Shown piece by piece: positions 28,956 through 64,000 of a DNA stretch of 64,000 bases (its first letter is position 1; the number at the start of each line of letters is the position of its first letter). Both the position numbers and the translations under genes were made by a program. The stretch is from Candidatus Woesearchaeota archaeon (GTDB taxonomy: Archaea > Nanobdellota > Nanobdellia > Woesearchaeales > JACPIF01). Below the pieces are notes generated by a model. The model was not told the origin of the DNA and did no database searches. It saw only the letters and a list, made by a program, of their open reading frames with translations. The DNA lies in the NCBI GenBank assembly GCA_016188215.1, contig JACPIF010000001.1:5923-69922 (forward strand), given 5' to 3'.

Positions 28956-30278
28956 CTAGTTATTAGTATTGTCTACCTTCTCTTTCTTTACTCTTTTCTT
29001 TGTCGGTATAGCAGTCAACTTAACTTTCTTTAAGGTATACTGGGCAGGATTACGTATCTTCTGGCAGAAATTGTCAGGCTTGCACACGCCAATATCAATC
29101 ATGTATGCCTTATTGTCGCAGTTGGGAGGCGGCATCTTCTTTCGCTGCAGTTTATGATACTTCAATTGGCCGAGGATATAGTTCTCCCTTAACGGCTCTG
29201 CATTCTTCTCGTTCCACGCCCTGACAATATTTTCCATCTCTTCATAGCTGTAGCCGACAGATGAAAGGAAGTTAAGCAAAACAAATAATGCGCGCTTCTT
29301 GCCGTCACTTAACCCATCCAAAATAAGCTTGATGCAAGGCGGGAAATATTCTGCTGAGATTGCCTCTGAAGGGATCTCAAACTGCTTCTCTGTCTTCTCA
29401 GGCTGCTTTGCGCTCTGCTCAAATGAGGTGTCAAATGCATCCAGAAGCAACCTTCTGGCTTCCCCCCTTACAGCATTCCTGTCAATGAAGCTGCCTTTCA
29501 CTATAACATTCTCAGGAGCAGCCATTGATTTCTGGAACTGCAATACCCGCATAGGATCAACAGGTATGGAGACAAGCCATGATTTTTCGTTCAAAGTGTA
29601 GGGCATCCTGTACAAATGCCGGGATGAGATAAGGACAGTGTCTATGTCAAGCAAAGAAAATGGGTTAAGCTGGTTATTGATGACCAGCTCCTTGTAGCCC
29701 TTTCCCGTGAGCTTCTGTATATCTTCAAAGGAGTATGCGTTGAGAATTGCCTGCATTAATTCATCTTTTATCTTTTCCTTTAGCCTTGCAGCAATCTGCC
29801 TAGGGCCTTCAGGGAACAGGTCTTTGGTCAAATTTTTGCCAACCCTGTCAGGAAAGCTTTCAAAAGGAATGCCGATATGGAAACCGTTGCCGCCTGAGAA
29901 CTTTAAGGAGACACTCCTGATGCCTTCCAGCTTTAATCTTTTGCAGATAATGAAAGCGGCTATCTTGGAGAATTCAACGTGCTTGGTGTCAATGTCCAGG
30001 AGCAAATCCCAGCCTATGCGTAATGCGTCCAGCTCTTTTCTTTTTAGGTTTGGGCTTAAAGCTAATGGATTGCTCCATAATTCTTCAGAAGCATGAAAAC
30101 TGGTGGCGCCTTCCTTGGCAAGCTCAAACACATCCCTTGGATACTGCAGGATATCCGGCCTTTTTCCGAAACCAGACTCGCCGAACTTCACAGCAACTTC
30201 TCTATTGGCTGCGTTCTGGAAAATAGCTTCCTGGACCTCTTTCCTAGAGTAATACTGCAGTATGAGCCTGGCATCCAT
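28956..30278 (-). CDS. priSL: Fused DNA primase: PriS catalytic domain plus PriL C-terminal Fe-S domain
   Basis: N-terminal PriS-like core (LLDIDTKH, SFHxS). The C-terminal FPPCIKLIL…PPNCDNK…GVCKPDNFC resembles the PriL-CTD 4Fe-4S cluster ligands. Confidence 0.6.
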   Translation of the reverse strand: MDARLILQYYSRKEVQEAIFQNAANREVAVKFGESGFGKRPDILQYPRDVFELAKEGATSFHASEELWSNPLALSPNLKRKELDALRIGWDLLLDIDTKHVEFSKIAAFIICKRLKLEGIRSVSLKFSGGNGFHIGIPFESFPDRVGKNLTKDLFPEGPRQIAARLKEKIKDELMQAILNAYSFEDIQKLTGKGYKELVINNQLNPFSLLDIDTVLISSRHLYRMPYTLNEKSWLVSIPVDPMRVLQFQKSMAAPENVIVKGSFIDRNAVRGEARRLLLDAFDTSFEQSAKQPEKTEKQFEIPSEAISAEYFPPCIKLILDGLSDGKKRALFVLLNFLSSVGYSYEEMENIVRAWNEKNAEPLRENYILGQLKYHKLQRKKMPPPNCDNKAYMIDIGVCKPDNFCQKIRNPAQYTLKKVKLTAIPTKKRVKKEKVDNTNN

Positions 30279-30370
30279 ATGGCTGTGGAATTGGTTTGGG
30301 TATTAAAAGGTTCTACTCTTAACGTGCGCTAAGATTTATATAGTCTGGAACATATACTATATGATAATGA

Positions 30371-33064: not shown

Positions 33065-33217
33065 ATCCGAACCAGACAAAGAGGTGTTGTGGTGTGTTGG
33101 TTGAGATTTTCCAGTCCGGATTATAAGCTATGGTGTTTGTATAAGATATTTGTAGCAAGCTTTTTAAAATAGCTTATGTAACCTATATCCAGACTTGGAA
33201 TCCATACATATGTAAAA

Positions 33218-33886
33218 ATGGCAATAACACTACAGAACCCGCCGTTATTCTATACTATAGACACTGCACTGCAGCTCGTATCCATGCTTATAGCGCTTTT
33301 AATCGTTGGATTCGGCTATAAAGCCTATAGGTTCACCAAGGATAAGCGATACTATTACTACTCAGTCGCCTTTGCCCTCATCGCAGCTGCGTTCTTTGTC
33401 AAGGCACTTTCCAATGTCATCATCTACTATATCGTGCCTTCCCCCGCAGCCAATTTCCTGCCGGTATTCAACTGGGGCATCTTTGCATACAGAATCCTCA
33501 TGATGCTTGCCTTCACAGGCATTATGCTCATGACCTTAAAGATAACTGACAGGAGGGTTGTATTATTGCTTTTGGTGTTTGCACTGTTCTCAGCGATCGC
33601 CTCAGAAGACCATAATACAGCTTTTTACATACTTTATATCATCATCCTGGGAGCAACATCTACGCAGCTCTACCTCAACTACAAGCTCAAGAAATCAAGG
33701 CTTGGGCTGGCAACCTTTGGCATCTTTGCCATGCTTACCGTGGCGCAGGCACTGTTCCTTGCGCTGATCCTGGACTTTTACTTTAAGATAGGCCTGGGAG
33801 CATTGCTGTACTACGCAGGGCAGGCATTCCAGATAACCAGCTTCCTGCTCCTGTTTTATGTCATGATACGCATCTCCAGACGATAA
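33218..33886 (+). CDS. Hypothetical 6-TM membrane protein
   Basis: Hydrophobic periodicity only. Confidence 0.4.
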   Translation: MAITLQNPPLFYTIDTALQLVSMLIALLIVGFGYKAYRFTKDKRYYYYSVAFALIAAAFFVKALSNVIIYYIVPSPAANFLPVFNWGIFAYRILMMLAFTGIMLMTLKITDRRVVLLLLVFALFSAIASEDHNTAFYILYIIILGATSTQLYLNYKLKKSRLGLATFGIFAMLTVAQALFLALILDFYFKIGLGALLYYAGQAFQITSFLLLFYVMIRISRR

Positions 33887-33889
33887 AAG

Positions 33890-34162
33890 ATGGCTGAACG
33901 AAGAGATAGGATAACCATCATCTATGACATCCTCTCAGCTATTGCTGCGAAGAGCGGCAGGATCAAGCCAACACATTTACTGTATAAGTCTAATCTTTCC
34001 CATATCAGCATGAAGAAGTACATTGAGGAGCTTAAGGGGAAGAAGCTGATAGATGAAGAGCATGTAAAGGAGCATCTGTTCTATAAATTGACTGATGAAG
34101 GCATAAAGTTCCTGAATGATTACAAGAAGATAAGAGAGTTTACCGAGAGCTTTGGATTGTGA
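33890..34162 (+). CDS. Small winged-helix DNA-binding protein
   Basis: 90 aa with a wHTH-like sequence (ITIIYDILSAIAAKSGRIKPTHLLYKSNLSHISMKKYIEELKGKKLI). Confidence 0.45.
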   Translation: MAERRDRITIIYDILSAIAAKSGRIKPTHLLYKSNLSHISMKKYIEELKGKKLIDEEHVKEHLFYKLTDEGIKFLNDYKKIREFTESFGL

Positions 34163-34219
34163 TCACCTTAATTTTCTTTTGAAGCTAAATTTAAATAGTG
34201 CCTTAATTTCAAGCAACTT

Positions 34220-34912
34220 ATGAACGAGCTTCCCGCATCAGATATTTATGAGCAAGAGTTCAAGTATATGCCTTGGGGAACACTGATAGAGAGGGTTCTA
34301 GACCTGATATCCACAACAGTTCCACGCAACGGAAGCGCCCTTGACCTCATGTGCGGGCCAGGGTACTTGCTCGGAAAAATCAGGGAAAGGAGAAGGGACA
34401 TGTTTCTTGAGGGCATAGATATAAGCAAAGAATTCATCGGGCATGCAATAGGCAGATACCCTACAATCAAATTCGGCGTTGCAGATGTAATGGGCTGGAA
34501 TTCCACAAGAGGATATGACCTGGTTACATGCACTGGAGGCATCCACCACCTCCCCTATGAGCAGCAGGCAAGGTTCTTGGAGAAGGTAAAAGGCTTGCTA
34601 AAGCCAAACGGATTAGGCATTCTTGCAGATCCATATATAGATCATTATGAAAGTGAGGAAGAAAGGAAATTGGGTGCTGCGCGGCTTGGATATGAGTATC
34701 TTGCGGCCACAATGAGAAATGGGGCACCACCGGCAATAGTAAAAGCGGCCATAGATATCTTAGATAATGATGTAAGGGGAAAAGAATTTAAAACTTCAAT
34801 CAGAAGGATGAAACCAATAATGGGCAGTGTCTTCTCAAGCCTTGAAGTGCACAAGACATGGCCTGAAACAGATTCTGATTATGGGGAATATTACTTAGTT
34901 GTTAGAAAATGA
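34220..34912 (+). CDS. Class I SAM-dependent methyltransferase
   Basis: Motif I LDLMCGPGYLL and motif II VTCTGGIHHL. Confidence 0.65.
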   Translation: MNELPASDIYEQEFKYMPWGTLIERVLDLISTTVPRNGSALDLMCGPGYLLGKIRERRRDMFLEGIDISKEFIGHAIGRYPTIKFGVADVMGWNSTRGYDLVTCTGGIHHLPYEQQARFLEKVKGLLKPNGLGILADPYIDHYESEEERKLGAARLGYEYLAATMRNGAPPAIVKAAIDILDNDVRGKEFKTSIRRMKPIMGSVFSSLEVHKTWPETDSDYGEYYLVVRK

Positions 34913-34922
34913 ATGACCAATA

Positions 34923-35324
34923 TTGGCAACATTTTTAAATATTGAAGTTCCAGTCTGCTTTCAGATGCACATCGCAAGAGAACTTGAACAGTGGCTACAA
35001 GGATTGCGTGCATCAGATGAATTCATAATCGTTGAAGGCAAGAAGGACAAGGAAGCTTTAGAGCGGCAAGGCATTACAAATATCCTGATTCTCAACAAGA
35101 AGCCGCTTTATCAATTGGTGGAAGAGCTTTCATCTGAGCGCAAGAACGTCGTGATATTGACTGATCTGGACAGGAAAGGCCGGGAGCTGTACGGGAAACT
35201 GAACAATGGGCTTAAGAAGCACGGGGTCAAGGTAAATGACAAGCCACGCAACTTTTTGTTCAAAAGGACTAAATTAAGACAGATAGAAGGGCTGACGACT
35301 TATTTGCAGACTATACTGCAGTAA
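34923..35324 (+). CDS. Small Toprim-domain protein
   Basis: IIVEGKKDKEAL … VVILTDLDRKGREL (Toprim E and DxD). Confidence 0.55.
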   Translation: MATFLNIEVPVCFQMHIARELEQWLQGLRASDEFIIVEGKKDKEALERQGITNILILNKKPLYQLVEELSSERKNVVILTDLDRKGRELYGKLNNGLKKHGVKVNDKPRNFLFKRTKLRQIEGLTTYLQTILQ

Positions 35325-35366
35325 TAATACATAAGATTTTTAAACAAAAATTTCTTTCATGCAGAA

Positions 35367-35918
35367 ATGGCAATGCAATCTCTGCAGAAACTAAAGACTG
35401 GAGACAAAGCTCCCAACTTTAACTTAAAAGGCATAGATGGAAAATATTATGGTTTGCAGGATTTTAAGGATGCTAAAGCTTTGCTAGTGGTATTTATGTG
35501 CAACCATTGCCCTTATGTAAAGGCTAAACTGGAAACTATAAAGAATCTGCAGTCTAAGTATAAGGATAAAGGACTAGTCTTAGTAGGAATTAATTCTAAT
35601 GAATCAGAGAATTATCCTGAAGACAGCTTTGAGGGAATGGTGGAAACTGCTAAAGATAAGGATTTTAATTTTATTTACCTGCATGATGAAACACAGGCAG
35701 TAGCCAATGCTTACGGTGCTTCATGCACTCCAGACCCTTTTTTGTTTGATAACCAGCAGAAGTTAGTTTATCATGGAAGGTTTGATGATGCCTTAGAGCC
35801 TGGGCAAAAGGCGACACAGCATGATATGGAAGAAGCTGTTGTGGCAGTATCGCAAGGAAAAAAGCCTAAGCATGAGTTCCTTTATTCTCTAGGATGCTCT
35901 ATTAAGTGGAAAAGCTAG
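35367..35918 (+). CDS. Thioredoxin-fold thiol-disulfide oxidoreductase (AhpC/TSA-like)
   Basis: LLVVFMCNHCPYVKA (CxxC-type active site). Confidence 0.6.
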   Translation: MAMQSLQKLKTGDKAPNFNLKGIDGKYYGLQDFKDAKALLVVFMCNHCPYVKAKLETIKNLQSKYKDKGLVLVGINSNESENYPEDSFEGMVETAKDKDFNFIYLHDETQAVANAYGASCTPDPFLFDNQQKLVYHGRFDDALEPGQKATQHDMEEAVVAVSQGKKPKHEFLYSLGCSIKWKS

Positions 35919-35963
35919 TAATAAAACATTAAACTTTTAAACACAAAATATTTACCAAGAGCT

Positions 35964-36806
35964 ATGGCAATTAAAAACCAGATTAAAACTGTTCTGCTGC
36001 TTGGAATTTTAACAGGCATCCTGCTAGTTATAGGGCAATTCCTAGGAGGCAATACCGGATTAATCATCGCGCTTGTCATTTCTTTAGCATTGAACTTCAG
36101 CATGTACTGGTTTTCTGACAGGATAGCTTTGTTCATATATAGGGCAAAGCCGGCTGATCCTAAGCAGTATAGGGAGCTGCATAATTTAGTAGCTGATACG
36201 GCAAAGCTGTCTGGGATTCCAAAGCCAAGGGTGTATATTATCCCTTCTGAACAAAGTAATGCCTTCGCATGTGGAAGAAACCCTAAAAACGCCTCAGTTG
36301 CCTTTACACAGGGCATACTTAAATTGATGACAAAAGAAGAACTGCAAGGCGTTACAGCCCATGAAATCTCCCATGTTAAGAATAGGGATGTTCTTATTTC
36401 AACCATAGCTGCTTCTATAGCAGGTATCATCTCCTATATTGCAATGATGGTGAGATGGGGTCCTTTGTTTAATAGTGATGAAGAAGGTGTCAACCCCCTA
36501 TATTACATCATAATTGGGATATTAACTCCTATTATTGCCATGCTTATCCAGCTTGCCATCTCAAGAAGTAGGGAATATTTCGCAGATGAGAGTGGAGCTA
36601 AGCTATTACGCAATAGTGAAGGATTAGCTACAGCCCTTCAGAAACTGGAAAGTGATACTAAAAAGACCCCCATGAGGCTTGGAAGTCCCAGTACGGCGCA
36701 CCTCTTTATAGCAAATCCTTTTAGAGGTCAATTTCTTATGAGCCTTTTATCCACCCATCCCAATACTCAATCCAGAGTGGAACGCTTAAGAAAGATAAAA
36801 TTCTGA
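35964..36806 (+). CDS. htpX: HtpX-like M48 zinc metalloprotease
   Basis: TAHEISHVKNRD (HExxH), 4 TM helices and a C-terminal STHPNTQSRV. Confidence 0.8.
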   Translation: MAIKNQIKTVLLLGILTGILLVIGQFLGGNTGLIIALVISLALNFSMYWFSDRIALFIYRAKPADPKQYRELHNLVADTAKLSGIPKPRVYIIPSEQSNAFACGRNPKNASVAFTQGILKLMTKEELQGVTAHEISHVKNRDVLISTIAASIAGIISYIAMMVRWGPLFNSDEEGVNPLYYIIIGILTPIIAMLIQLAISRSREYFADESGAKLLRNSEGLATALQKLESDTKKTPMRLGSPSTAHLFIANPFRGQFLMSLLSTHPNTQSRVERLRKIKF

Positions 36807-36808
36807 AC

Positions 36809-36842
36809 CACTGGTCACTGGACAGATGTGCGCGTGAGATAT
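36809..36842 (+). repeat. 34-nt motif CACTGGTCACTGGACAGRTG…CGTGAGNTAT, copy 2
   Basis: cactggtcactggacagatgtgcgcgtgagatat, starting 3 nt after the htpX stop and about 90-140 nt upstream of the LAGLIDADG-like gene. Confidence 0.55.
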
Positions 36843-36931
36843 ATAAAGGCTAACCTCTCCCATTGATTAACTCATTCAATATAAATCCCACTAGGATGTG
36901 TTCAGCTTTCAAATTATGATTTCCAATTCTC

Positions 36932-38095
36932 GTGAAATCATTTACAAAGCTTCACATAATTAAAAAGACGGTGATTTACATGAATTCGCTTAATCAAATC
37001 AAAATTAGAGAGTTCCACATTAATCAATTTCCCACTGATAGAATATTCATTTCTTTAAACGAGAGTTTTCATAGAGAACTCTTTTCCATGATAAATATTA
37101 AAAATTATGAAAATTTGAATAAATCAACTTTTAAGCAATGGAAAAATAGAAGGCATTTTATTCCACTCTGGGTTATCATTAAGCTGCAGGAAACTTCACC
37201 ATATTCTATAGAAGACTTTGAAAGAAATATTATCGCGTATAAGGGTCCTAGTACCTCTGCTGTGATCGATAACCCATGTTTGCCTTTACTGGAGGATGAA
37301 AGACTACTGCGTGCTGTGGCCCACTTATTAGGAGACGGATTTGTAGGAGGCGGCTTTGGCAGTAAGTTGCCTCAAGGGAAGCAACACTCAGAATTTAGAA
37401 ACTTTGCTCCGGAACTTTTGGACAGTTTCCATAGAGATTTATCGGTATTTGGAAATGTTCCTGTAACTAAAAATTATCAGCACGGTTCTTTAGTAATACC
37501 CAATTCTATAGGGTATATCTTATGTCATCTTTATAGGATAAAGTTTGACACATTTAATTCACGAGTGCCAGAAGTATTTTTTAATCTTCCTAAAGAGTTG
37601 GTAGCACAATTCTTACGCGCCTTTGCAGATGATGAAGCACACGTTTTTGATAGTTCTATTGAGTATTATTCATGTAATAAGGATCTATTGCAAGATGTAC
37701 TATCTTTAATGAATTCACATTTTCCAGAGATTAAGACTTCTGGAATTAAAGCCAATATTAAAGCAGGAAGAAATACAAAGTATTCATTTTCAGTTTATAG
37801 CAAATCTCAAGAATTGTACCTGAATCATATAGGATTTGACCACAATCAAAAAACAAAAGATTTAACATTTAATCTAAGTCGCAATAAAAATAGAAAATAC
37901 AACAAAAATTCTCGCGATATAATTCTGGATTTATTAGCAAATAATACTTTATCTGCAAAGGAACTCTCTAGAATTACGAATATCACTCATGTACAAGTTT
38001 TGGCTTATCTTAAAGAACTTAAGGAACAAAGAAAGGTAAAAATTATTGAAAAAGTACATTGGGCTAATCGATGGACTTCTAAATTATCTCAATAA
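36932..38095 (+). CDS. Free-standing LAGLIDADG-like protein with C-terminal wHTH (possible homing-endonuclease relic)
   Basis: Two motifs about 100 aa apart: VAHLLGDGFVGG and FLRAFADDEAHV. C-terminal HTH LSAKELSRITNITHVQVLAYLKEL. Low GC. Confidence 0.4.
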   Translation: MKSFTKLHIIKKTVIYMNSLNQIKIREFHINQFPTDRIFISLNESFHRELFSMINIKNYENLNKSTFKQWKNRRHFIPLWVIIKLQETSPYSIEDFERNIIAYKGPSTSAVIDNPCLPLLEDERLLRAVAHLLGDGFVGGGFGSKLPQGKQHSEFRNFAPELLDSFHRDLSVFGNVPVTKNYQHGSLVIPNSIGYILCHLYRIKFDTFNSRVPEVFFNLPKELVAQFLRAFADDEAHVFDSSIEYYSCNKDLLQDVLSLMNSHFPEIKTSGIKANIKAGRNTKYSFSVYSKSQELYLNHIGFDHNQKTKDLTFNLSRNKNRKYNKNSRDIILDLLANNTLSAKELSRITNITHVQVLAYLKELKEQRKVKIIEKVHWANRWTSKLSQ

Positions 38096-44579: not shown

Positions 44580-44682
44580 ACGGTAGTGGTCTAGTGGTAT
44601 GATTCGAGCTTCCCAAGGTGGGCTGCGTTATCCAACCGCTAGGAGTCAGCTTGCGATGCGGGTTCGATTCCCGCCTACCGTA
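44580..44682 (+). tRNA. tRNA-Gly (anticodon CCC) with a ~32-nt intron at the canonical 37/38 position
   Basis: Acceptor ACGGTAG/CTACCGT. T-arm GCGGG-TTCGATT-CCCGC. Anticodon arm CGAGC-TTCCCA|intron|A-GCTTG. 103 nt total, about 71 nt after intron removal. CCA not encoded. Confidence 0.65.
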
Positions 44683-52135: not shown

Positions 52136-52657
52136 TTACGACTTTACCTTATCCTCAAAAACTACCTTGTCTATGTAGAGCAGCTTGCGCTGCATCTCCT
52201 CAAGATCCTCGCGCCATTTCTCAAACTCAGCCTCTACCTTTGTGCGGAGGTCGCCTAAAGCCTCAACTACGTAATCACTTTCCTTGATCTTGTTCCTTAT
52301 TGTATTAATATTTTCAAGTATGTTGCGGTACTCATCAATCTTGACAAACACCGGAACATCTTTTTTTGGGATAGTCTCAGGAACAGGTATTTGTTTGGGC
52401 TCATCGGTTTTCACTTGTAATTCCTGCTTTGGCATGACTTCTAAAGGAGGCAAGGGGAATTCCTCATTCTCTAGAGAAGGTATCTCGTAGCTCTTTGGCT
52501 CTGGAACTTCTGTGTTCTCTATAGGCGGCAAATCCGGTAATGGAGGAAGCGTTAGATCGCCCTGCGGCATATCCTGCTGCTCAAGAAGCTCAGGAGGCGG
52601 AGGAGGCGGTAAATCAATCTCTTTCTGCTTCCTCTTGAAAATATCAAGTACCCCCAT
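52136..52657 (-). CDS. Proline-rich plus coiled-coil protein
   Basis: Pro-rich N-terminal half (PPPPPPELL…LPPLPDLPP) followed by the same PVFxKIxEY module as the neighbouring gene. Confidence 0.4.
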   Translation of the reverse strand: MGVLDIFKRKQKEIDLPPPPPPELLEQQDMPQGDLTLPPLPDLPPIENTEVPEPKSYEIPSLENEEFPLPPLEVMPKQELQVKTDEPKQIPVPETIPKKDVPVFVKIDEYRNILENINTIRNKIKESDYVVEALGDLRTKVEAEFEKWREDLEEMQRKLLYIDKVVFEDKVKS

Positions 52658-52729: not shown

Positions 52730-54118
52730 TTATCTGCTAGTAGCAAAAGATTCTTTACCAAGACCCCTTCCGCCAAAACATTTTATACAGTAGAAATCAT
52801 TAGGAGCAGGAGCAACCTGTAACATCCCATTAAGGCTTAGATATCCCAAGCTTGTTGCACTAAGATGTTCTCTTATAGCTTCAGTATCACTATTCAATCT
52901 ATAAGCCAAAAGTTTCTCTTTGACCGGGGTATCTATACCTAAATCACAAATATCTATATAAGGTGGGGATGCAATTCTTACATGCACCTCAAGTGCTCCA
53001 GTCTCAAACAACTGCTTGACAATTCTTGGCATTGTTGTGCCCCTTACTATTGAATCATCAACAAGCACAATCCTTTTACCCCTTATCTTTTCAGAGTCTG
53101 GAACCAATTTCATATCTACACCTTTTTCTCTATCCTCCTGGTCATACATTTGAAACGTTCTTTTTACCAAAGAGTTATAAATAAACCCAGAAGGCTCAAA
53201 ACGTATTCCAGATTGTGCTGCATATCCCTGACTGGCTCTCATCCCTGACATAAGTACAGGCACTACAATATCTGCTTCAGCAGGATGCTCAATCGCGAGC
53301 TGCATGCCAGTATGCTCTCTGAACTTGCCTACTGAAGAACCTTCGAAGATGTAGCTGTCTGGTCTGCTCATATAAACTAAATCAAAAACACACCGGTATC
53401 TTTCTTTAGGCTCAAACAATTGTGTTTTCCTAACTTTCTTTTCATCAATAATAATCATCTGACCCGGTTTAATATCATCACAGTATTCAACACCTGTCCT
53501 TTTAAAAGGACTTGTTTCTGAGGCTATTACCCATCCTCCATTCCCCTTTATCTTTCCCAAGCATAACGGCCTGTTTTCATGAGGATCCCGTATTGCAATA
53601 AGCTTACCTTCACCAGCTAAAATAAGTGAATATGATCCGTAAATCTCTGAAGAACCCTCAATGTATTCCAAAGCATCTGCTATTCTTCTTTCAAGAGTGC
53701 CTTTGTTTGACATTTTTATCATTTCAAATAGTAGACGAGAATCACTAAAACCCTTATCCTTCACAGCAGAAAAGAGCGTGTCCATGACATTAGAGGAAAA
53801 ATTTAATTGACCATTGTGCGCAAGGGCGAATTCTTCATTGTGAATAGGCTGCAAATTCTCAGTCGGAGATTTTCCATCTGCATTGGGTTCTACAGTAGTA
53901 TACCTTGTATGGCCAACAGCAATTGTACCATTTAATCCCGCTATTATATCTCTGTTAAAAACTTCTGTAACTGCACCAGGACCTTTGTGCGATTTAACTA
54001 ATCCATCCACAAGAGCAGCTAAACCAGCACCTTGCGGACCCCTATGGTAAAGGTCAACCAGCATATTAAAAGCTATAAAAGAAGCATCATGACTACTAAC
54101 CCCAACCACACCACACAT
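52730..54118 (-). CDS. purF: Amidophosphoribosyltransferase (class II GATase plus PRTase)
   Basis: N-terminal MCGVVGV (Ntn-Cys). PRTase motif IVLVDDSIVRGTTM. Confidence 0.7.
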   Translation of the reverse strand: MCGVVGVSSHDASFIAFNMLVDLYHRGPQGAGLAALVDGLVKSHKGPGAVTEVFNRDIIAGLNGTIAVGHTRYTTVEPNADGKSPTENLQPIHNEEFALAHNGQLNFSSNVMDTLFSAVKDKGFSDSRLLFEMIKMSNKGTLERRIADALEYIEGSSEIYGSYSLILAGEGKLIAIRDPHENRPLCLGKIKGNGGWVIASETSPFKRTGVEYCDDIKPGQMIIIDEKKVRKTQLFEPKERYRCVFDLVYMSRPDSYIFEGSSVGKFREHTGMQLAIEHPAEADIVVPVLMSGMRASQGYAAQSGIRFEPSGFIYNSLVKRTFQMYDQEDREKGVDMKLVPDSEKIRGKRIVLVDDSIVRGTTMPRIVKQLFETGALEVHVRIASPPYIDICDLGIDTPVKEKLLAYRLNSDTEAIREHLSATSLGYLSLNGMLQVAPAPNDFYCIKCFGGRGLGKESFATSR

Positions 54119-54337
54119 GATATTTTAACGGGTTAAAAGGCGGGGGTATAAATTGATTTCGGAAAAATCAGGGCAATTGTGTAATTTTCCCTCTTTGCTT
54201 TGAAGATAAACACAAACATTTATAAAGAAAATATGTTCCCGGAAGTTGGTACTTCTGAGATTGCCTTAGGCAGTGTTATTTGATTCTGCCGTCGTGGTAT
54301 AGCCTGCGGTTGCACAATCTATTTAAATGAGCGCTTA

Positions 54338-55426
54338 TTGTTCTCTTTTTTTAGGATGCTGGACACAAGTAAAGCTGCACAATTAGTTCTTGATGATGGC
54401 TCTGTTTTTCCCGGCATATCCTTCGGCGCTGACAAATCTGTTTCAGGCGAAGTCGTGTTCAATACAGGAATGACAGGGTATCCTGAATCTTTTACCGATC
54501 CTTCTTACAGAGGGCAGATCCTTGTCCTGACATACCCCTTGATAGGAAACTACGGTGTGCCTGGAATTGACAAGGAGCATAACCTGCTGAAATTTTTTGA
54601 ATCTGACAAGGTCCATATCCGCGCACTGATAATATCTGACTACTCAAACAACCACAACCACTGGAATTCCCGGAAAAGCCTGGCTGCATGGCTGCAGGAG
54701 CATAACATCCCTGCGCTGCATGGCATTGACACAAGAAGCCTGACGCAGAAATTAAGGGAGAAGGGCGTGATGCTGGGCAAGCTGGTGAATGGAACTGACG
54801 TGAGGCTTGAGGACCCAAACAAAAGAAATCTTGTTGATGAGGTCAGCATAGAGCGAAAGCAGATTTATGAGGCAGGGAAAAAGAGAGTACTGCTGATTGA
54901 CTGCGGAGTCAAGTACAGCATAATAAGGAATTTATTGGCGCGGAATGTGACCGTAATCAGGGTGCCGTGGGATTATGATTACAGCAGGGAGCGCTATGAT
55001 GGAATTGTGATCTCTAATGGGCCAGGGGATCCAAAGATGTGCAAGGCAACTATAGAAAATGTCAGGCAGTCAATAAAAGAAAAGATTCCAATCCTTGGCA
55101 TCTGCCTGGGCAACCAGATCCTTGCATTGGCAGCAGGCGCAAACACCTACAAGCTCAAGTACGGGCATAGAAGCCAGAACCAGCCATGCATTGACCTGGA
55201 AACAGGGAGGTGCTACATAACCTCGCAGAATCATGGGTATGCAGTTGACACAAAGTCACTTGGAAAGGACTGGAAGCCCTGGTTTGTGAATGCGAATGAT
55301 AATACGAATGAGGGGATGCGGCACAAGAGGCTGCCGTTCATGAGCTGTCAATTTCACCCAGAAGCGTATCCAGGGCCAGTTGATACAAACTTTATTTTTG
55401 ACAGGTTTTTGAGGATGGTGAAATGA
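54338..55426 (+). CDS. carA: Carbamoyl-phosphate synthase small (glutaminase) subunit
   Basis: CarA N-domain plus class I GATase (GICLGNQ, HGYAV). Confidence 0.85.
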   Translation: MFSFFRMLDTSKAAQLVLDDGSVFPGISFGADKSVSGEVVFNTGMTGYPESFTDPSYRGQILVLTYPLIGNYGVPGIDKEHNLLKFFESDKVHIRALIISDYSNNHNHWNSRKSLAAWLQEHNIPALHGIDTRSLTQKLREKGVMLGKLVNGTDVRLEDPNKRNLVDEVSIERKQIYEAGKKRVLLIDCGVKYSIIRNLLARNVTVIRVPWDYDYSRERYDGIVISNGPGDPKMCKATIENVRQSIKEKIPILGICLGNQILALAAGANTYKLKYGHRSQNQPCIDLETGRCYITSQNHGYAVDTKSLGKDWKPWFVNANDNTNEGMRHKRLPFMSCQFHPEAYPGPVDTNFIFDRFLRMVK

Positions 55427-55427
55427 A

Positions 55428-55937
55428 ATGAGACAAGAATATGTGTACCATGTTGATGAAAACGATAAGGTACTTGGAAAAGTGACCAGGAAGGAGATGC
55501 GCGAGAAGAATCTTCTTCATAGGAGCACCTTCATTCTCGTCTTCAATACGAAAGGCGAGCTTTTGGTTCATAAAAGGACCATGACAAAAGATATTTTCCC
55601 TGGTTACTATGCCTTATGCGTAGGAGGAACTGTCTCGTATGGTGAAAAGTATGAAGAATCAGCATATAGAGAAGCACAGGAAGAGATTGGAGCTCAAGAT
55701 GCAGATTTGAAATTCTTATTCAAATTTAAGTTTGATAATCCAAAAATAACACGAGTATATGGCTATGTATTCTCTCTTATCTACAACAGGCCGTTGAAAT
55801 TGCAAAAAGAAGAACTCGCCTATGCAACATTTATGCCAATCAAAGAAGTTAAAGAACTGATGAAAAAAGAAAGCGTATGTCCTGATGATATAGAAATATT
55901 CAACAAATATCTCAAAGAGTTCCATGGCAAAAAATAA
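55428..55937 (+). CDS. Nudix hydrolase embedded between carA and carB
   Basis: Nudix box CVGGTVSYGEKYEESAYREAQEEIGA. 1-nt gap after carA and 14-nt overlap with carB. Confidence 0.65.
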   Translation: MRQEYVYHVDENDKVLGKVTRKEMREKNLLHRSTFILVFNTKGELLVHKRTMTKDIFPGYYALCVGGTVSYGEKYEESAYREAQEEIGAQDADLKFLFKFKFDNPKITRVYGYVFSLIYNRPLKLQKEELAYATFMPIKEVKELMKKESVCPDDIEIFNKYLKEFHGKK

Positions 55938-58900
55938 ACAAAAGCCAAAAATCAACAAGCCGAAGAAAGTCCTAATCCTAGGATCAGGGGCATTGAAAAT
56001 AGGTGAGGCGGGGGAATTCGATTATTCTGGAAGCCAATGCCTCAAGGCGCTGAAGGAAGAGGGAATTAAAACTGTACTGGTAAATCCGAACATAGCAACT
56101 ATCCAGACCAGCGAAGGGATGGCAGACACGGTTTATTTCCTGCCTGTAACCCCTTATTTCGTTGAAAAAATCATCAAGAAAGAAAGGCCGGATGCAATCC
56201 TGCTTGGATTTGGCGGGCAGACTGCCCTGAACTGCGGCCTGGAGCTGGATGCGCAGGGCATCCTAAAGAAATACAATGTCAAGGTGCTCGGCACTTCAAT
56301 AAAGGCTATCAGGCTGACTGAAGACAGGAAGCTATTCTCGGAATTCCTTAAAAGCATAGATGTAAAGACTCCGAAAAGCAGGACTGCAACAAATATTGAA
56401 CAGGCCTCACAAGTTGCGCAAAAGCTTGGTTATCCTATAATGGTGCGCTCCGGATTCGCGCTCGGTGGCCTTGGATCAGGCGTTGCCAGGAACCAGGAAG
56501 GGCTCAAGCTGCTTGCGGCAAAGGCATTAGCCTATTCTAAACAGATACTTGTAGAGGAATACCTGCACGGCTGGAAAGAGATAGAGTACGAGGTTGTCAG
56601 GGACAGCAAGGACAACTGCATCACAGTCTGCAACATGGAGAATTTTGATCCGATGGGAATACATACAGGGGAGAGCATAGTTGTAGCGCCCTCGCAGACG
56701 CTGACGAACCATGAATACCATAAACTGCGCCAAATCTCCATACACGTCATCCGCAGTCTAGGCATTGTGGGAGAGTGCAACATACAGTTTGCGTTTGACC
56801 CGCATTCAGAAGATTATAGGGTGATAGAAGTTAATGCAAGGCTTTCGCGCTCATCTGCGCTTGCATCCAAGGCAACAGGATACCCGCTCGCGTTCATCGC
56901 TGCAAAGCTTGCGCTAGGCTATTCTTTGAGCGAGCTTGACAATTCAATCACCAAGAAAACAAAAGCATGCTTTGAGCCTGCGCTTGACTATGTGGTGCTC
57001 AAGATACCCAGGTGGGACATGCAGAAGTTCAGGGAGGTTGATACAAAGATAGGGAGCGAGATGAAATCAGTAGGGGAAGTAATGGCCATCGGCAGGAAGT
57101 TTGAAGAAGTCCTGCAGAAGGCGCTGCGCATGCTTTCCATCGGGGTTGAGGGATTGGCATGCAATGCGCTGCAGTTTGACGATCTGGAGCACGAACTTGA
57201 GAATCCTACTGATAGGAGAATATTTGCTATTGCGCAGGCCTTCAAGGAAGGGATGCCTGTTGATGCAATCTATGCACTCTCACGGATTGACAAGTGGTTC
57301 CTGTACAAGATCAAGCATATCGTGGACATGGAGCACAACCTCAAGATGTACAGCCTGAGCAAAGAGCTATTGCTCAAGGCAAAGCAGCTGGGCTTCTCTG
57401 ACAATCAGATTGCGCTGCTAAAGGGAAAATCAGAGCTTGAGATAAGGCAGCAGCGGAAACAGCTCGGTGTCATGCCTTTTGTCAGGCAAATAGACACGCT
57501 GGGAGCCGAGTATCCTGCATCCACTAATTACCTCTACATGACATATAACTCCGGGCAGCATGATGCACTGCCATTGAAGCAGAAGGCTGCCATAGTTCTT
57601 GGCTCAGGAGCATACCGCATCGGAAGCTCGGTTGAATTCGACTGGTGCTGCGTCAATGCAGTGCTCACGCTACAACAGCTAGGCTACAAGACCATCATGA
57701 TAAATTATAATCCCGAGACTGTCTCAACGGACTATGACATCTGCGACAAGCTGTATTTTGAAGAGCTGAGCCTTGAGCGCGTGCTTGACATCTACGAGTA
57801 TGAGCAGCCATCAGGAGTCATCGTATCAATGGGAGGGCAGATACCAAATAATATTGCCCTGAAGCTGCACAATCAAAATGTCAAGATATTCGGGACAAGC
57901 CCCGTCAATATTGACCGGGCAGAAGACAGGCATAAATTCTCACAGCTTATGGATACACTTCATATTGAGCAGCCTGCCTGGAAAGAGGTGACAACTGTAG
58001 AGGATGCAAAGCGGTTTGCAGAGACCGTCGGCTATCCTTTGCTGGTGAGGCCAAGCTATGTACTAAGCGGCTCAGCCATGAGCGTCGTGTTTGAGGAAAA
58101 AAGGCTGATTGAGTATATCAAGAAGGCAGCCGACATCTCACGGGAGCATCCTGTCGTCATAACAAAGTTCATTGAGAATGCGAAGGAGATTGAGATAGAC
58201 GCGGTTGCGAACAAGGGAGCATTGGCGGCGTATGCCATTACAGAGCATATTGAAAATGCAGGAGTGCATTCAGGCGATGCAACCTTGGTGCTGCCTGCGC
58301 AGCGGCTGTACGCAGAAACAGCCAGGAAAATACTGGATTACTCATCAAAGATAGCGCAGTCGCTGCAGATTACTGGGCCGTTCAATATGCAATTCCTTGC
58401 CATAGACAATGATGTCAAGATCATAGAATGCAACCTTCGCGCATCCCGCAGCTTCCCGTTTGTGTCAAAAGTCATGAAGCGTAACTTCATTGACATTGCA
58501 ACCAAGACCATGCTCGGCAAGCCCATTCCTCCTTTCAAGAATGGGAAATTAAGCTATGTGGGCGTCAAGGCACCGCAATTCTCATTTACCAGGCTCAAGG
58601 GGGCAGATCCCGTGCTCGGTGTGGAGATGTCTTCTACCGGCGAGGTAGGATGCCTTGGGAAGGATTTGAACGAGGCGTTCCTAAAAGCCATACTTGCGGT
58701 CGGCTTCCGCCTGCCTAAGAAAACTGTGCTGCTGTCAACCGGACCACTTAAAACAAAACTGCACCTACTTGAGGCGTGCACGCATTTCAAGGAGCTCGGA
58801 TTCACGCTGCTTGCGACTGAAGGCACGCACAAGTTCCTCAAAGAGCACAGGATACCTGCAACAAGGGTATACTGGCCGCTTGACAAGAAGCAGCCGAATG

Positions 58901-59118
58901 TCATGCAATTCCTTGAATCAGGCAGCGTTGACCTGGTGATCAACATACCTAAAAGCTCTGAGAAGATAGAGCTTGACAATGACTATATTATCAGGAGGAT
59001 GGCAATTGACCGTAATATACCATTGCTGACAAATGAGCAGATAACAAGGCAGTTCGCGCATGCACTTGCAACAGTCAAGCCGGAGCAGCTTGAGATCAAG
59101 AGCTGGCAGGAGTACTAG
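55924..59118 (+). CDS. carB: Carbamoyl-phosphate synthase large subunit
   Basis: 1064 aa with two ATP-grasp halves and an MGS-like domain. Confidence 0.9.
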   Translation: MAKNKQKPKINKPKKVLILGSGALKIGEAGEFDYSGSQCLKALKEEGIKTVLVNPNIATIQTSEGMADTVYFLPVTPYFVEKIIKKERPDAILLGFGGQTALNCGLELDAQGILKKYNVKVLGTSIKAIRLTEDRKLFSEFLKSIDVKTPKSRTATNIEQASQVAQKLGYPIMVRSGFALGGLGSGVARNQEGLKLLAAKALAYSKQILVEEYLHGWKEIEYEVVRDSKDNCITVCNMENFDPMGIHTGESIVVAPSQTLTNHEYHKLRQISIHVIRSLGIVGECNIQFAFDPHSEDYRVIEVNARLSRSSALASKATGYPLAFIAAKLALGYSLSELDNSITKKTKACFEPALDYVVLKIPRWDMQKFREVDTKIGSEMKSVGEVMAIGRKFEEVLQKALRMLSIGVEGLACNALQFDDLEHELENPTDRRIFAIAQAFKEGMPVDAIYALSRIDKWFLYKIKHIVDMEHNLKMYSLSKELLLKAKQLGFSDNQIALLKGKSELEIRQQRKQLGVMPFVRQIDTLGAEYPASTNYLYMTYNSGQHDALPLKQKAAIVLGSGAYRIGSSVEFDWCCVNAVLTLQQLGYKTIMINYNPETVSTDYDICDKLYFEELSLERVLDIYEYEQPSGVIVSMGGQIPNNIALKLHNQNVKIFGTSPVNIDRAEDRHKFSQLMDTLHIEQPAWKEVTTVEDAKRFAETVGYPLLVRPSYVLSGSAMSVVFEEKRLIEYIKKAADISREHPVVITKFIENAKEIEIDAVANKGALAAYAITEHIENAGVHSGDATLVLPAQRLYAETARKILDYSSKIAQSLQITGPFNMQFLAIDNDVKIIECNLRASRSFPFVSKVMKRNFIDIATKTMLGKPIPPFKNGKLSYVGVKAPQFSFTRLKGADPVLGVEMSSTGEVGCLGKDLNEAFLKAILAVGFRLPKKTVLLSTGPLKTKLHLLEACTHFKELGFTLLATEGTHKFLKEHRIPATRVYWPLDKKQPNVMQFLESGSVDLVINIPKSSEKIELDNDYIIRRMAIDRNIPLLTNEQITRQFAHALATVKPEQLEIKSWQEY

Positions 59119-60075
<957 letters not shown>

Positions 60076-60186
60076 ATTGATATGAAACAACAAAACCAAA
60101 AAAAAGCAAAGCTTTTTGGGTCCCGAAAACTCAGTTTTCGTGGAATTAAAAATTTTTGGGTTCCAAAAAAGCACGGAGGTGTTTTT

Positions 60187-60639
60187 TTGAAAGAGTATAA
60201 GATAAGCGCGATAAGCGAAGGGACAGTGATTGACCATATCACGCCGGAGGCAACGTTCAAGGTTATTGAGATCCTGAACCTGGACAAGAGGCCGGACCTC
60301 ATCATATCTGTCGGCAATAATATGAGCAGCAAGCAAATCGGGAAGAAAGGCATCATTAAGATAAGCGGCAGCTTCCTTGGGGCAGATGATGCAAATAAGA
60401 TAGCGCTCATTGCGCCAAATGCAACCCTCAACATCATCAAGAATTTCAAGGTCACTGAAAAAAAGCAGCTCAAGATACCTGAAAAGATTGAGGGTATCGT
60501 GAAATGTTTTAATCCGAACTGCATAACGAATGTTGAGCGCGTACCGACTAAGTTTACCGTCACCTCACGTGACCCATTAAAGTTGCTCTGTGCATATTGC
60601 GAGCGGCGCATGAAGCGGGAGGATATCATATTGCTATGA
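60187..60639 (+). CDS. pyrI: Aspartate carbamoyltransferase regulatory subunit (probable TTG start)
   Basis: LKEYKISAISEGTVIDHI matches the PyrI N-terminus. SD GGAGGTG lies 6 nt before an in-frame TTG at 60187. C-terminal zinc domain CxxC…CxxC. The track ORF starts at 60082 and is unlikely to be translated from there. Confidence 0.7.
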   Translation: MKEYKISAISEGTVIDHITPEATFKVIEILNLDKRPDLIISVGNNMSSKQIGKKGIIKISGSFLGADDANKIALIAPNATLNIIKNFKVTEKKQLKIPEKIEGIVKCFNPNCITNVERVPTKFTVTSRDPLKLLCAYCERRMKREDIILL

Positions 60640-61577
60640 GCAGTCACATATCAACGAAAGCAGCAATAGCAGGCATAACTATAGAGCCGTGCATCTTCAA
60701 TGCAGCCGGGCCGCTCTGCGTGACCAAAGAAGAATTAGAGGCTATAGGCAGCTCGCATTCAGGGGCAATCATGACAAAGTCATGCACGTTTGAGCCGCGG
60801 CCAGGAAATCCGGAGCCCAGGTATTACGAAGATGCGCTTGGATCCATCAATTCAATGGGGCTTCCAAACCTTGGCTACATGAAGTATGCAGAATTCTCTT
60901 CAGAGATGAAGAAGTACAGGAAACCATATATCGTGAGTGTTGCTGGGCTAAGCCTGCAGGATAATATTGAGATTGTCAAATATCTGGGGCAGTTCAAGGA
61001 TATAGATGCGATTGAGCTGAATCTGAGCTGTCCAAATGTGATAGGAAAGCCGCAGGTGGCTTATGACTTTGATGCTTCAGATGAGATGCTGCGGGAGGTG
61101 CTCAAGGTAAACAAACATGTCCTTGGCGTCAAACTATCGCCATACTTTGATTTTGCGCATTTCCAGCAGATGGCAGGTGTCCTAAAGAAGCATAAGCTCG
61201 CGTTTGTGAGCTGCGTGAATAGCCTGGGAGAAGGATTGTTCATTGATGCTGATGCCGAGCAGGTTGCCATCAAGCCAAAGGGAGGGTTTGGCGGAATCGG
61301 CGGTGATTATATCAAGCCGACTGCACTTGCAAATGTCAGGAAATTTTACGAGCTGCTTGACAGGAAAGTCCCGATTGTAGGCGTTGGAGGAATCAAGTCC
61401 GGCAGGGACGCATTTGAGTTTATCCTGGCAGGCGCAACAGCTGTGCAGATAGGCACTGAGTTCATGCGATCAGGCACAGCCTGCTTTGCAAGGGTTGATG
61501 CTGAATTAAAGGCCTTAATGAAGGAAAAGGGCTATAGCACACTTGATGATTTTAGAGGCAAGCTTAAAGTACTCTGA
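60637..61577 (+). CDS. pyrD: Dihydroorotate dehydrogenase (class 1, no pyrK partner in the window)
   Basis: MSSHISTKAAIAGITIEPCIFNAAGP…. TIM-barrel DHOD motifs. Start-stop overlap with pyrI. Confidence 0.8.
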
Positions 61578-61592
61578 TAATTATTTACTCTT

Positions 61593-62909
61593 ATGGCTAG
61601 TTCGCTTCTCATTAAACACTGCAGGATTCTTGACCGCGGGAAACTGAAAGAGAGCCATATTTTCATCAGGCAAGGGAAGATTAAGAGCATAGGAAAGGCT
61701 GAGAGAGCGCAGAAGACAATAGAGGCAGAAGGCAATATAGTAATTCCCGGGCTCATAGACTGCCATGTGCATTTCAGGCAGCCTGGAGGCGAGCAAAAAG
61801 AGGATTTCTACAGCGGCAGCCGGGCAGCTGCGAAAGGGGGCATTACAAGCATTTTTGACATGCCTAATACAAACCCTGCGACAACTACCCTAGCTGCATT
61901 AAAGCAGAAGCGGGAACTGGCAAAACGGCACTGCATCGTGAATTATGGACTGCATTTCGGCGCAACTCCTGATAATGCAGATATGGTTCGGAAAGCAGAT
62001 ACAAAATCTGTAAAGATATACATGGGCTCTTCTACGGGAAACCTTTTGGTGAATACCCCTGAGGCGCTCGCAAGGATATTCATGGCGGCTAAACAGTCAG
62101 GGAAAGTATGCATGGTGCATGCTGAGGATGAGGAATGCTTGCGAAACCTGAAGGAGATGTACAAGGAGCAGACTGCTAATCATGCTGAGGCAGAGCTTCA
62201 TACTAAAATAAGGGACAGCAGTTGTGCAGCAAAAGCTATAAAAGATGCTCTGCGGCTGCAGGCCAAAATCGGCAATAAACTTTACTTTTGCCATACCAGC
62301 ACCAAGGAGGAGATGGCACTATTGCGGAAGGCAAAGCAGCGCTCCACAAAGGTTTTCTGCGAGGTGACGCCGCATCACCTGTTCCTTGACGTCAGAGCTT
62401 ACCGGAAGTACGGGAATTTTGTGAAAGTGAATCCGCCGCTTAGGCATGCTGAGGACAGGGAAGCGCTATGGAAAGGCATTGCAGACGGGACTGTTGATAC
62501 CATATCTACAGACCACGCGCCGCACCTGCCTGAGGAGAAAGGGCAGGGCTACTGGGATGCCCCATCAGGAATGCCTGGTGTGGAGACCATGCTGCCGCTG
62601 CTGCTGGATGCTGTCAATAAAGGTAAGCTGAGCCTTACAAAGGTAGTGGAGCTCACTGCATGGAATCCTGCAAAGATATTCGGCATAGTGAATAAAGGAT
62701 ATATTAAAGTAGGATATGATGCGGATTTAGTGTTGGCTGACATGAATCTGAGCACAAGGCTGGAATCAATAGAAAGCAAATCAAAATGGAGCCCGTTCCA
62801 GGACATGATCCTGCAGGGATGGCCTGTCGTTACAATTATAAATGGTGATATAGCATATTACCGCGGGGCATTGTACAACACAAGAGGAAAGCCGGTAGCT
62901 TTTGCATGA
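61593..62909 (+). CDS. pyrC: Dihydroorotase
   Basis: DCHVHFRQPG metal-binding motif and an amidohydrolase fold. Confidence 0.85.
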   Translation: MASSLLIKHCRILDRGKLKESHIFIRQGKIKSIGKAERAQKTIEAEGNIVIPGLIDCHVHFRQPGGEQKEDFYSGSRAAAKGGITSIFDMPNTNPATTTLAALKQKRELAKRHCIVNYGLHFGATPDNADMVRKADTKSVKIYMGSSTGNLLVNTPEALARIFMAAKQSGKVCMVHAEDEECLRNLKEMYKEQTANHAEAELHTKIRDSSCAAKAIKDALRLQAKIGNKLYFCHTSTKEEMALLRKAKQRSTKVFCEVTPHHLFLDVRAYRKYGNFVKVNPPLRHAEDREALWKGIADGTVDTISTDHAPHLPEEKGQGYWDAPSGMPGVETMLPLLLDAVNKGKLSLTKVVELTAWNPAKIFGIVNKGYIKVGYDADLVLADMNLSTRLESIESKSKWSPFQDMILQGWPVVTIINGDIAYYRGALYNTRGKPVAFA

Positions 62910-63873
62910 CATGGCAGACAAAACCAGGATAATATTGAAGGAGATTGTGAAGCAGATATATGCAATGCGGAGATCATTGCAGCGCGAAAAAAAGGTTGAT
63001 ACGTGGTGGCAAAAGACCCTCACCTTAAAGCAATTTGTTGAAACTGAGGGATTGAAGCAGGCATATACAGCATCATTCTACAACCTGGTTAAGCAAAAGC
63101 CACGGATACGGCAGGATATTGTCGCCAAGCAGAAGTATATTACAGATAGCGAGTTCAGGCGGGGCAAGACTGTGTTTGAGCTGCTCACAGCGCAATGGAA
63201 TTTTGTGGAGCAGATGCTGGAACTTATTGAAGGCAATATTGCCCTGATAAAAGGACTGCAGCAGGCTGAGCATGGCAACATAAAAAGCCAAATGGTAATC
63301 CATTTACAGCAGATAGCGAGATTCCAGGAGTTGAGGAAGATGCTATATGGCAAGGAATATAAGTACTTGTCAAGGATTTTCAAGACAGAGAAGCGCATCA
63401 ATGTAGCTGAGATTGCCCTGAACAAAAAAGAGCTGCAGCGCGAAAAGCTTGAGATCATGGCGTTCATAAGGGCTGTTGACCTGCTCAAGAGGCTGCAGAT
63501 ACACCTGAACTATCAGTTTAAGTACATTGATGCGATTGAGAATTATTATATATCGGTGGAGGAGCATGCCACAAAATCCGAGATGCGTGAGATGGTAAGC
63601 GAGGAACGGGAGCTGGAGGAGGCTGAGGCAGGCCATAAGCTCAAGTCAATGCTGCCGGTAGTCATCAATATCACTTCACTTGTAAAATTGTTTGCGCACA
63701 ATTCCAGCGAGGAGATGCGGCATGTGCACACGCTTGAAGCCCTATTCAAAGGCCAGCGATCCAAGAATATCAAGCTGATAAGCCTTACAAAAAAAGAATT
63801 ATCGCTGGAGCAGCTGGAGAAATCATACGAAACTGCGCTGAAGCATGTGATCAGGGAGATCAGGCATGGATGA
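62902..63873 (+). CDS. Hypothetical all-helical protein inside the pyr operon
   Basis: 323 aa, coiled-coil rich, overlapping pyrC at its start and pyrE at its end. Not PyrF-like. Confidence 0.4.
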
Positions 63874-64000
63874 TGCAGCCAGCATAAGCAAAATACTGCT
63901 GGAAATCAAGGCAGTTACCCTTAACCCGGGAAAACCGTACACCTTTGTATCTGGCATAAGGAGCCCTATCTATTGCGATAATAGGCTGATCCTCAGCTAT
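63866..64000 (+). CDS. pyrE: Orotate phosphoribosyltransferase, partial (runs off the window end)
   Basis: [40 protein letters not shown]. Confidence 0.7.

Follow-up and report, generated by a model that had tools for sequence, protein, structure and literature searches.

The last 9.7 kb of a 64,000-nucleotide (nt) stretch of the Candidatus Woesearchaeota archaeon contig JACPIF010000001.1 (the whole stretch is hereafter called the window, and all coordinates are window positions) very probably form the opening 9.7 kb of one complete and tightly packed operon of 10 genes with which uridine monophosphate (UMP) is made de novo, in the order carA, nudix, carB, pyrB, pyrI, pyrD, pyrC, orphan, pyrE and pyrF. 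The pyrimidine enzymes of this operon are ordinary. What is new is a YfcD-family Nudix gene lying between carA and carB, and, between pyrC and pyrE, a conserved gene without family match (the orphan), a relative of which is carried by a probable mobile element. Both are lineage-restricted accessory genes that, to judge from their sequences, have been built into the operon and kept by selection. The open reading frames (ORFs) between 52 and 64 kb were examined, and those of the operon, all on the plus strand, are:

54356..55426 (+): carA, small, glutamine-hydrolysing subunit of carbamoyl-phosphate synthase (CPSase); TIGR01368, 464.8 bits (cutoff 307), with Pfam CPSase_sm_chain and GATase domains
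55428..55937 (+): nudix, YfcD-family Nudix hydrolase of 169 aa; PF00293, 59.2 bits (cutoff 21.1)
55924..59118 (+): carB, large subunit of CPSase; TIGR01369, 1537 bits (cutoff 1027), and Pfam domains
59119..60075 (+): pyrB, catalytic chain of aspartate carbamoyltransferase; TIGR00670, 386 bits (cutoff 237)
60187..60639 (+): pyrI, regulatory chain of aspartate carbamoyltransferase; TIGR00240, 165.7 bits (cutoff 148.6) over residues 37-182 of the long ORF
60636..61577 (+): pyrD, class 1A dihydroorotate dehydrogenase (dihydroorotate oxidase type); NF002702, 439.6 bits (cutoff 301)
61593..62909 (+): pyrC, dihydroorotase; TIGR00857, 385.7 bits (cutoff 279)
62911..63873 (+): orphan gene, 320 aa from the annotated ATG 62911 or 323 aa from TTG 62902, without family match
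63866..64000 (+): pyrE, orotate phosphoribosyltransferase, first 45 codons; NF001729 match to the fragment, E 7e-12

All of these Pfam and NCBIfam assignments lie above curated cutoffs, except that the orphan is unassigned and the pyrE fragment was placed by E value. Along the 10 genes the gaps and overlaps (negative) are 1, -14, 0, -4, 15, 1, -8 and -13 nt, the one exception to this tight packing being a spacer between pyrB and pyrI (see later). The gene order and coordinates given in the initial annotation were reproduced, as were its two Nudix junctions: carA ends at 55426 and nudix starts at 55428, leaving a 1-nt gap, with a GAGGATGGTG ribosome-binding site within the 3' end of carA, and the end of nudix at 55937 overlaps the start of carB at 55924 by 14 nt. 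The first base of pyrB follows directly upon the carB stop. Some starts needed choosing. The carA ORF opens at TTG 54338 but its start is probably the called ATG 54356, and pyrD, with an ORF opening at 60597, probably starts at ATG 60636, from where it overlaps pyrI by 4 nt. The orphan overlaps pyrE by 8 nt (ATGGATGA) at its 3' end. The claim that it overlaps both neighbours holds for pyrE, but for pyrC only if the orphan is read from TTG 62902; from ATG 62911 there is a 1-nt gap.

The operon had been described as near-complete and without pyrF, with the orphan ORF in the slot where pyrF might be expected. The window, however, ends 135 nt into pyrE, and this accounts for the apparent absence. 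Contig L001, one of four independent assemblies that carry a 320-aa orphan protein identical to that of the window, differs from the window by 18 mismatches over 11,090 shared nt (99.8% identical) and continues beyond the window end with a full-length pyrE (209 aa; TIGR00336, 136.5 bits, cutoff 106.8) and then pyrF (281 aa), with an overlap of 13 nt between the two genes. This pyrF encodes an orotidine monophosphate (OMP) decarboxylase of subfamily 2 (TIGR02127, 215.1 bits, cutoff 110.6), and has the D-x-K-x-x-D signature as DAKRGD, within LLDAKRGDIG. Downstream of pyrF are unrelated genes, whose products are a zinc-ribbon protein, an LTD-domain protein, an MJ0538-like protein and ScpB. The operon also closes with pyrE-pyrF in L005/L006/L007, L014 and L054. 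With pyrE and pyrF read from L001, the genes for CPSase, aspartate carbamoyltransferase, dihydroorotase, dihydroorotate dehydrogenase, orotate phosphoribosyltransferase and OMP decarboxylase are all present, so that each of the six steps to UMP has its canonical gene, and none is missing or replaced.

It can accordingly be dismissed as extremely improbable that the operon is devoid of pyrF and that the 323-aa helical ORF is a non-orthologous OMP decarboxylase acting in its place, even though the 64-kb window shows no pyrF and the ORF is coupled to pyrE in translation. Both the 99.8%-identical contigs and relatives have a canonical subfamily-2 pyrF overlapping the end of pyrE; the slot is not vacant, as pyrF lies two genes downstream of the orphan. 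The ORF is predicted to be all-helical and matches no OMP decarboxylase profile in Pfam or NCBIfam, including PF00215 and the TIGR pyrF models. Of the reservations made at the time, that pyrF might be found elsewhere has come true, while that of a clear unrelated annotation for the ORF has not, the orphan having none. The supposed pathway gap, with its candidate non-orthologous replacement, is a window-edge artefact, and correcting it is the main gain of the analysis.

A further supposed anomaly concerned pyrD, which was said to lack a pyrK partner. No PyrK-like gene was found in the operon by Pfam or among the gene calls, and to that extent the statement stands. PyrD, however, belongs to class 1A: it exceeds the cutoff of the class 1A model NF002702, carries the active-site cysteine motif NLSCPN, and falls below the cutoffs of other models (class 1B-type PRK07259, 208 against 269; archaeal PyrD, 134 against 330). 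Class 1A dihydroorotate dehydrogenases function as homodimers and need no PyrK electron-transfer subunit, and the absence of pyrK is therefore expected rather than anomalous. In passing the equivalog model, in its NLSCPN motif and in the lack of a PyrK gene, the window PyrD agrees with the Lactococcus lactis DHODA type; no difference from it was detected, and the window PyrD is an ordinary member of its class. Archaeal hosts more usually have a class 1B-like PyrD.

The Nudix gene lies inside carAB, where it is translationally coupled, an arrangement that is unusual and conserved in one clade. The initial annotation had singled it out on these grounds, and the arrangement proved to be real. The order carA-nudix-carB is found in four Woesearchaeota lineages (the window lineage, L005/L015, L008/L009 and L010/L011/L016), across which the Nudix proteins are at least 62% identical, the gap between carA and nudix is small and the overlap with carB is 14-20 nt. 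Between the window lineage and L005 the ratio of nonsynonymous to synonymous substitution (dN/dS) of the Nudix gene is about 0.12. This low value, together with a position kept across family-level divergence, argues that the gene is functional. In L008, a carA-like stretch lies upstream of the Nudix gene at 5126-6169 (tblastn, 63% identity) where no carA was called and where the gene caller gave a 171-aa ORF on the opposite strand; carA is intact in the sister contig L009, and the L008 copy may be frameshifted or pseudogenised, or the call may be in error.

The encoded protein has an intact Nudix box (G67 TVSYG E73 KYEESAY R81 E82 A Q E85 E86 I G88 A), the residues of which are invariant or nearly so in 31 homologues, and both this pattern and the PF00293 score place it in the Nudix superfamily. 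Its top NCBIfam match is the YfcD model (NF011922, 120.2 bits), and its best solved relative is E. coli YfcD (PDB 2FKB, E 1e-22, residues 4-160), with which it shares the Nudix box and an N-terminal HR motif. It is thus predicted to be a catalytically competent pyrophosphohydrolase of the YfcD family. Its score is below the cutoff of 152 for a YfcD equivalog. Weaker matches in the PDB search were Deinococcus radiodurans DR_0079 (PDB 1Q27/2O5F; E 1e-9, N-terminal half only) and, weaker still, NudI. DR_0079 is a pyrimidine nucleoside triphosphate diphosphatase that prefers cytosine (deoxy)ribonucleoside di- and triphosphates (PMC5389931). Its preference for CDP and CTP fits the pyrimidine context of the window gene.

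From this context and the nearest characterised relatives, the reading tentatively favoured for the Nudix protein is that of a pyrimidine nucleotide pyrophosphatase. The enzyme would be made in step with CarA and CarB, would yield the monophosphate by hydrolysis of pyrimidine nucleoside di- or triphosphates (or of a related diphosphate-linked metabolite), and may in this way trim or sanitise the pyrimidine pool fed by the operon. Several observations speak against such a substrate. The protein falls short of the YfcD equivalog cutoff, as already mentioned, and the function of YfcD itself is listed as 'undetermined' in a survey of the Nudix clan (PMC5389931). The match to DR_0079 spans only residues 7-91. 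The two proteins differ at the last Gly of the Nudix box, which is replaced by Asn in DR_0079 (PMC5389931) and kept as Gly88 in the window protein. Genomic context elsewhere offers no guide to substrate, as the 29 other YfcD-like loci examined have no neighbour in common, only clade-specific ones; these loci are mostly bacterial, including Desulfomonilia, Binatia, Tectomicrobia, Pseudomonadales and Ktedonobacterales, and include two from Woesearchaeota (L012 and L029). DR_0079 is not known to be operon-linked to CPSase. A search of the literature for a Nudix gene within carAB, or for the function of YfcD, returned nothing relevant.

The main alternative to a free-standing housecleaning enzyme is that the Nudix protein binds CarA/CarB as a stoichiometric accessory of CPSase, in which it would be a subunit that senses nucleotides or processes an effector. 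In the four lineages the gene is placed exactly between those of the two subunits (gap 1 nt, overlap 14-20 nt), which would suit such a role, as would the absence of carAB linkage from all 29 of the other YfcD-like loci, the bacterial ones included. The alternative is nevertheless unlikely, for the catalytic Nudix residues are all retained, as expected of an active hydrolase, and CarB keeps its own allosteric domain, an MGS-like domain at its C-terminus (Pfam). Still less probable, indeed very unlikely, is a type 1 isopentenyl-diphosphate isomerase (IDI) with the Nudix fold. Some database entries give homologues this name, and IDI profiles and structures do match weakly, but the scores are below cutoff (TIGR02150, 47.9 bits against 105.8; NF002995, 53.2 against 127) and the full REx2EE Nudix box is present. 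In addition, the positions of His25, Cys67 and His69 of E. coli IDI, its catalytic Cys and two metal-binding His residues, appear to be occupied by Met24, Gly66 and Thr68 (HMMER register, query n corresponding to IDI n+1). Membership of the type 1 IDI family was rejected on the profile scores and on the replaced Cys/His positions.

In L012, a more distant Woesearchaeota contig (GCA_018221125.1), a YfcD-like Nudix gene 47% identical to that of the window lies at 8001-8498, overlapping an upstream gene for a HAD-family hydrolase, and sits between Nop56-like and fibrillarin genes, not in carAB. Nudix and HAD enzymes are a typical pair of nucleotide pyrophosphatase and nucleotidase. As a gene held between carA and carB, the window Nudix provides a genomic hint to the physiological role of the uncharacterised YfcD family.

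The second accessory gene, the orphan, belongs to an extremely small family, which amounts to 7 sequence clusters among 5.8 billion proteins. A word-seeded search of that set gave six clusters (65-100% identity), and 1.84 billion representatives, searched exhaustively by profile, yielded only two, one of which was a new and distant member, P0053; a second profile search for relatives added no further members. Two further short contigs of the close type are present in JGI metagenomes, while IMG/VR holds no relative. In all six chromosomal lineages with genomic context the orphan lies directly after pyrC, and is followed by pyrE-pyrF wherever the contig reaches that far. Between the window lineage and L005, where synonymous sites are saturated in all genes, the dN of the orphan is 0.225, compared to 0.262 for pyrC, 0.278 for pyrE and 0.262 for pyrF, and since this is at the level of the flanking enzymes it argues for a real protein on which purifying selection acts as strongly as on them. 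A core block of 21 residues shows no variation among the six close members and very little in P0053, and there is a second block, KLFAHNS..EM. Synonymous codon positions vary freely within the 21-residue block; the constraint is therefore at the protein level, and an embedded RNA or DNA element is ruled out. The orphan is a real, tightly coupled and probably co-transcribed gene, in keeping with the earlier proposal that it is likely to be co-translated with its neighbours.

The protein is basic (pI 9.6, with values of 9.3-9.6 among members), has no Cys in the six chromosomal members, and is predicted to be all-helical. No match was found in Pfam, NCBIfam, PHROGs or PADLOC, including scans of each member at E <= 5, and a profile search of the PDB at E <= 10 gave nothing consistent. 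Foldseek searches of the PDB and BFVD returned only generic long-helix proteins (E > 0.03, TM < 0.3). A canonical coiled coil was considered and rejected, as no heptad pattern is sustained along the protein. Several His, Glu and Asp residues are invariant across the six close members, which also have ExxH-like spacings in common, and a metal-binding helical bundle of the ferritin/hemerythrin type was also considered; this idea was dropped because most of the invariant residues are missing from P0053 (D207, E218, H219, H242 and H271 are not kept), which is 36% identical over the full length.

Tentatively, then, the orphan may be a non-enzymatic binding protein: an operon-specific regulator, a nucleic-acid binder or a partner of a neighbouring enzyme. 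It would be made in step with PyrC and PyrE and would bind nucleic acid or the neighbouring enzymes, and not act as a catalyst. The case has its weaknesses. AlphaFold confidence is poor (a predicted local distance difference test score, pLDDT, of 40 with six sequences) and still weak when seven sequences are used (pLDDT 59, predicted template modelling score 0.54). Profile and fold searches detected no DNA- or RNA-binding domain, helix-turn-helix (HTH) or known fold. The conserved motifs upstream of carA (see later) are equally kept in a lineage whose locus is without the orphan. Lastly, P0053 is encoded among unrelated ORFans on a probable mobile element, so the function of the family need not concern pyrimidines.

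That element is contig L013 (ENA ERZ28564302 scaffold_18984, 1-11357), which is 11.4 kb long, has a GC content of 36%, and carries about 20 co-directional genes, nearly all of them ORFans. Those with some recognisable relationship are:

ParB-like gene (Pfam ParB HTH, 1e-15; PHROG ParB, 5e-14)
radical-SAM gene of a phage family (phrog_9298, E 4e-29)
HTH/HNH-like gene
weak ArdC-N-like gene (weak match, with an HExxH motif)

L013 is probably a plasmid or virus from a DPANN archaeon, which suggests that the orphan family circulates between Woesearchaeota chromosomes and mobile elements. Other L013 genes have no relatives in the window or in related loci. A 248-aa protein with four internal repeats is also encoded. 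A role for P0053 as a replication initiator was rejected, as no convincing iterons or repeats and no Rfam match were found beside it.

The L013 gene set raises the possibility, doubtful but not negligible, that the orphan is a domesticated or hitch-hiking mobile-element gene whose function is unrelated to pyrimidines (for example in element/host interaction, defence or counter-defence) and to which the operon only supplies expression. That the only distant family member lies beside ParB-like, phage-type radical-SAM, HTH/HNH-like and weak ArdC-like genes, and that the family is so small, are both in keeping with this. Against it are the constant place of the gene, between pyrC and pyrE, in six lineages whose identity has fallen to 65-80%, a dN as low as those of the enzymes, junctions that hold neither repeats nor leftover space, and the absence of PADLOC or PHROG matches and of an IMG/VR relative. 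As an anti-phage defence or phage family, the orphan had no PADLOC or PHROGs match at E <= 0.1. A more ambitious view, and an unlikely one, would have the orphan as a hitherto unrecognised dedicated component of pyrimidine synthesis in archaea, where the regulation of this pathway is little understood, either as a regulator within the operon or as a scaffold for PyrC and PyrE, with the mobile relative manipulating the nucleotide supply of the host; in parallel, the Nudix protein may be a third CPSase subunit or an effector-processing partner. Returning to the preferred account, in which a complete operon carries a pyrimidine nucleotide pyrophosphatase and a non-enzymatic binding protein, the whole, taken jointly, is judged to be just on the probable side. 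Whatever its role, the orphan represents a rare, tiny family common to a core biosynthetic operon and a mobile element.

The relatives L005/L015 have the same gene order as the window and 58-79% protein identity across the ten operon genes. The L010/L011/L016 locus differs: it has carA-nudix-carB, pyrB, pyrI and a different PyrD (300 aa, only 32% identical to that of the window) and then ends, being followed on the opposite strand by a regulator of the Lrp/AsnC type, and is without pyrC, orphan, pyrE and pyrF. As this locus ends after a different PyrD, the second half of the window operon, from the class 1A pyrD through pyrF, may be a separately acquired block. The taxonomic labels of these sequences conflict, the TPA entries L015 and L016 being labelled 'uncultured Methanosarcinales archaeon', as opposed to Candidatus Woesearchaeota for the window proteins at NCBI.

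The pyr operon of Bacillus subtilis has the order pyrR-P-B-C-AA-AB-K-D-F-E, and its PyrR has a phosphoribosyltransferase fold. The window operon resembles it in bringing the UMP genes together in overlapping, coupled frames, and B. subtilis likewise has a non-enzymatic gene (pyrR) in the operon. The differences are in the gene order, the nudix gene between carA and carB, the presence of pyrI, and a class 1A PyrD rather than class 1B with PyrK; the window operon also has no pyrR or pyrP, and has instead a helical orphan unrelated to PyrR. Sequence inserted between carA and carB is known from bacteria, in Pseudomonas (carA-orf-carB) and Neisseria (a carA-carB intervening sequence). These are not known to be Nudix genes, whereas the window insert is a conserved, coupled enzyme gene.

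DPANN archaea are usually thought to depend on a host for nucleotides. A self-contained UMP operon in a tiny groundwater DPANN archaeon of the Woesearchaeota, with two embedded accessory genes under purifying selection, is of modest interest. Complete pyrimidine pathways have already been reported for some Woesearchaeota (PMC8421398). No literature was found on either the carA-nudix-carB architecture or the orphan.

Two stretches outside the coding sequences may be involved in the control of the operon:

54119..54355 (+): divergent intergenic region between a purF-like gene (-) and carA (+)
60076..60186 (+): pyrB-pyrI spacer of 111 nt, in this lineage only

In the first, a TATA-like TATTTAAAT is found at 54320-54328, about 27 nt before the carA ATG (54356), and a block, GTTGCAYAATCTATTTAAA, and a T-run before the same ATG are kept in L005 and L010. 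The TATTTAAAT box is kept in three lineages and is the probable promoter of the operon, with a leader that would be short or absent. In the pyrB-pyrI spacer, TTTTGGGTYCCNAAAA is present in two near-palindromic copies, at 60114-60129 and, 40 nt further on, at 60154-60169. The motif is absent from the rest of the window, where 0.54 chance matches are expected, and of the fetched loci only the identical contigs L001-L003 have it. The pyrI start is probably TTG 60187, behind a GGAGGTG ribosome-binding site within the spacer. The ORF can also be read from ATG 60082, in which case the spacer would code for a basic N-terminal extension of PyrI of 35 aa; in relatives, a PyrI of 149-150 aa comes directly after pyrB, with 0-10 nt between. 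The spacer may be a small inserted element, or it may function as an operator or as internal regulatory RNA. A shared operator linking the orphan to the carA promoter was rejected, as the upstream blocks are also present in the lineage without the orphan and the spacer palindromes are private to the strain.

The purF-like gene divergent from carA (52730-54118, -) codes for an amidophosphoribosyltransferase recognised with weak Pfam scores, so that the first purine gene and the pyrimidine operon share a single control region of 220 bp, which is also kept in L005. Next to it is a proline-rich ORF of 173 aa (52136-52657, -) that belongs to no family. Elsewhere in the window, GC content is 0.28 at 26000-28000 and 0.35-0.40 at 30000-38000, compared to about 0.45 in the remainder, and this low-GC region may be a genomic island. 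ORFs of 897 aa (30371-33064) and 387 aa (36932-38095) have no Pfam match. A 103-nt tRNA at 44580-44682 (+) was detected by Rfam (50 bits) and not reported by ARAGORN, and is probably an intron-containing archaeal tRNA.

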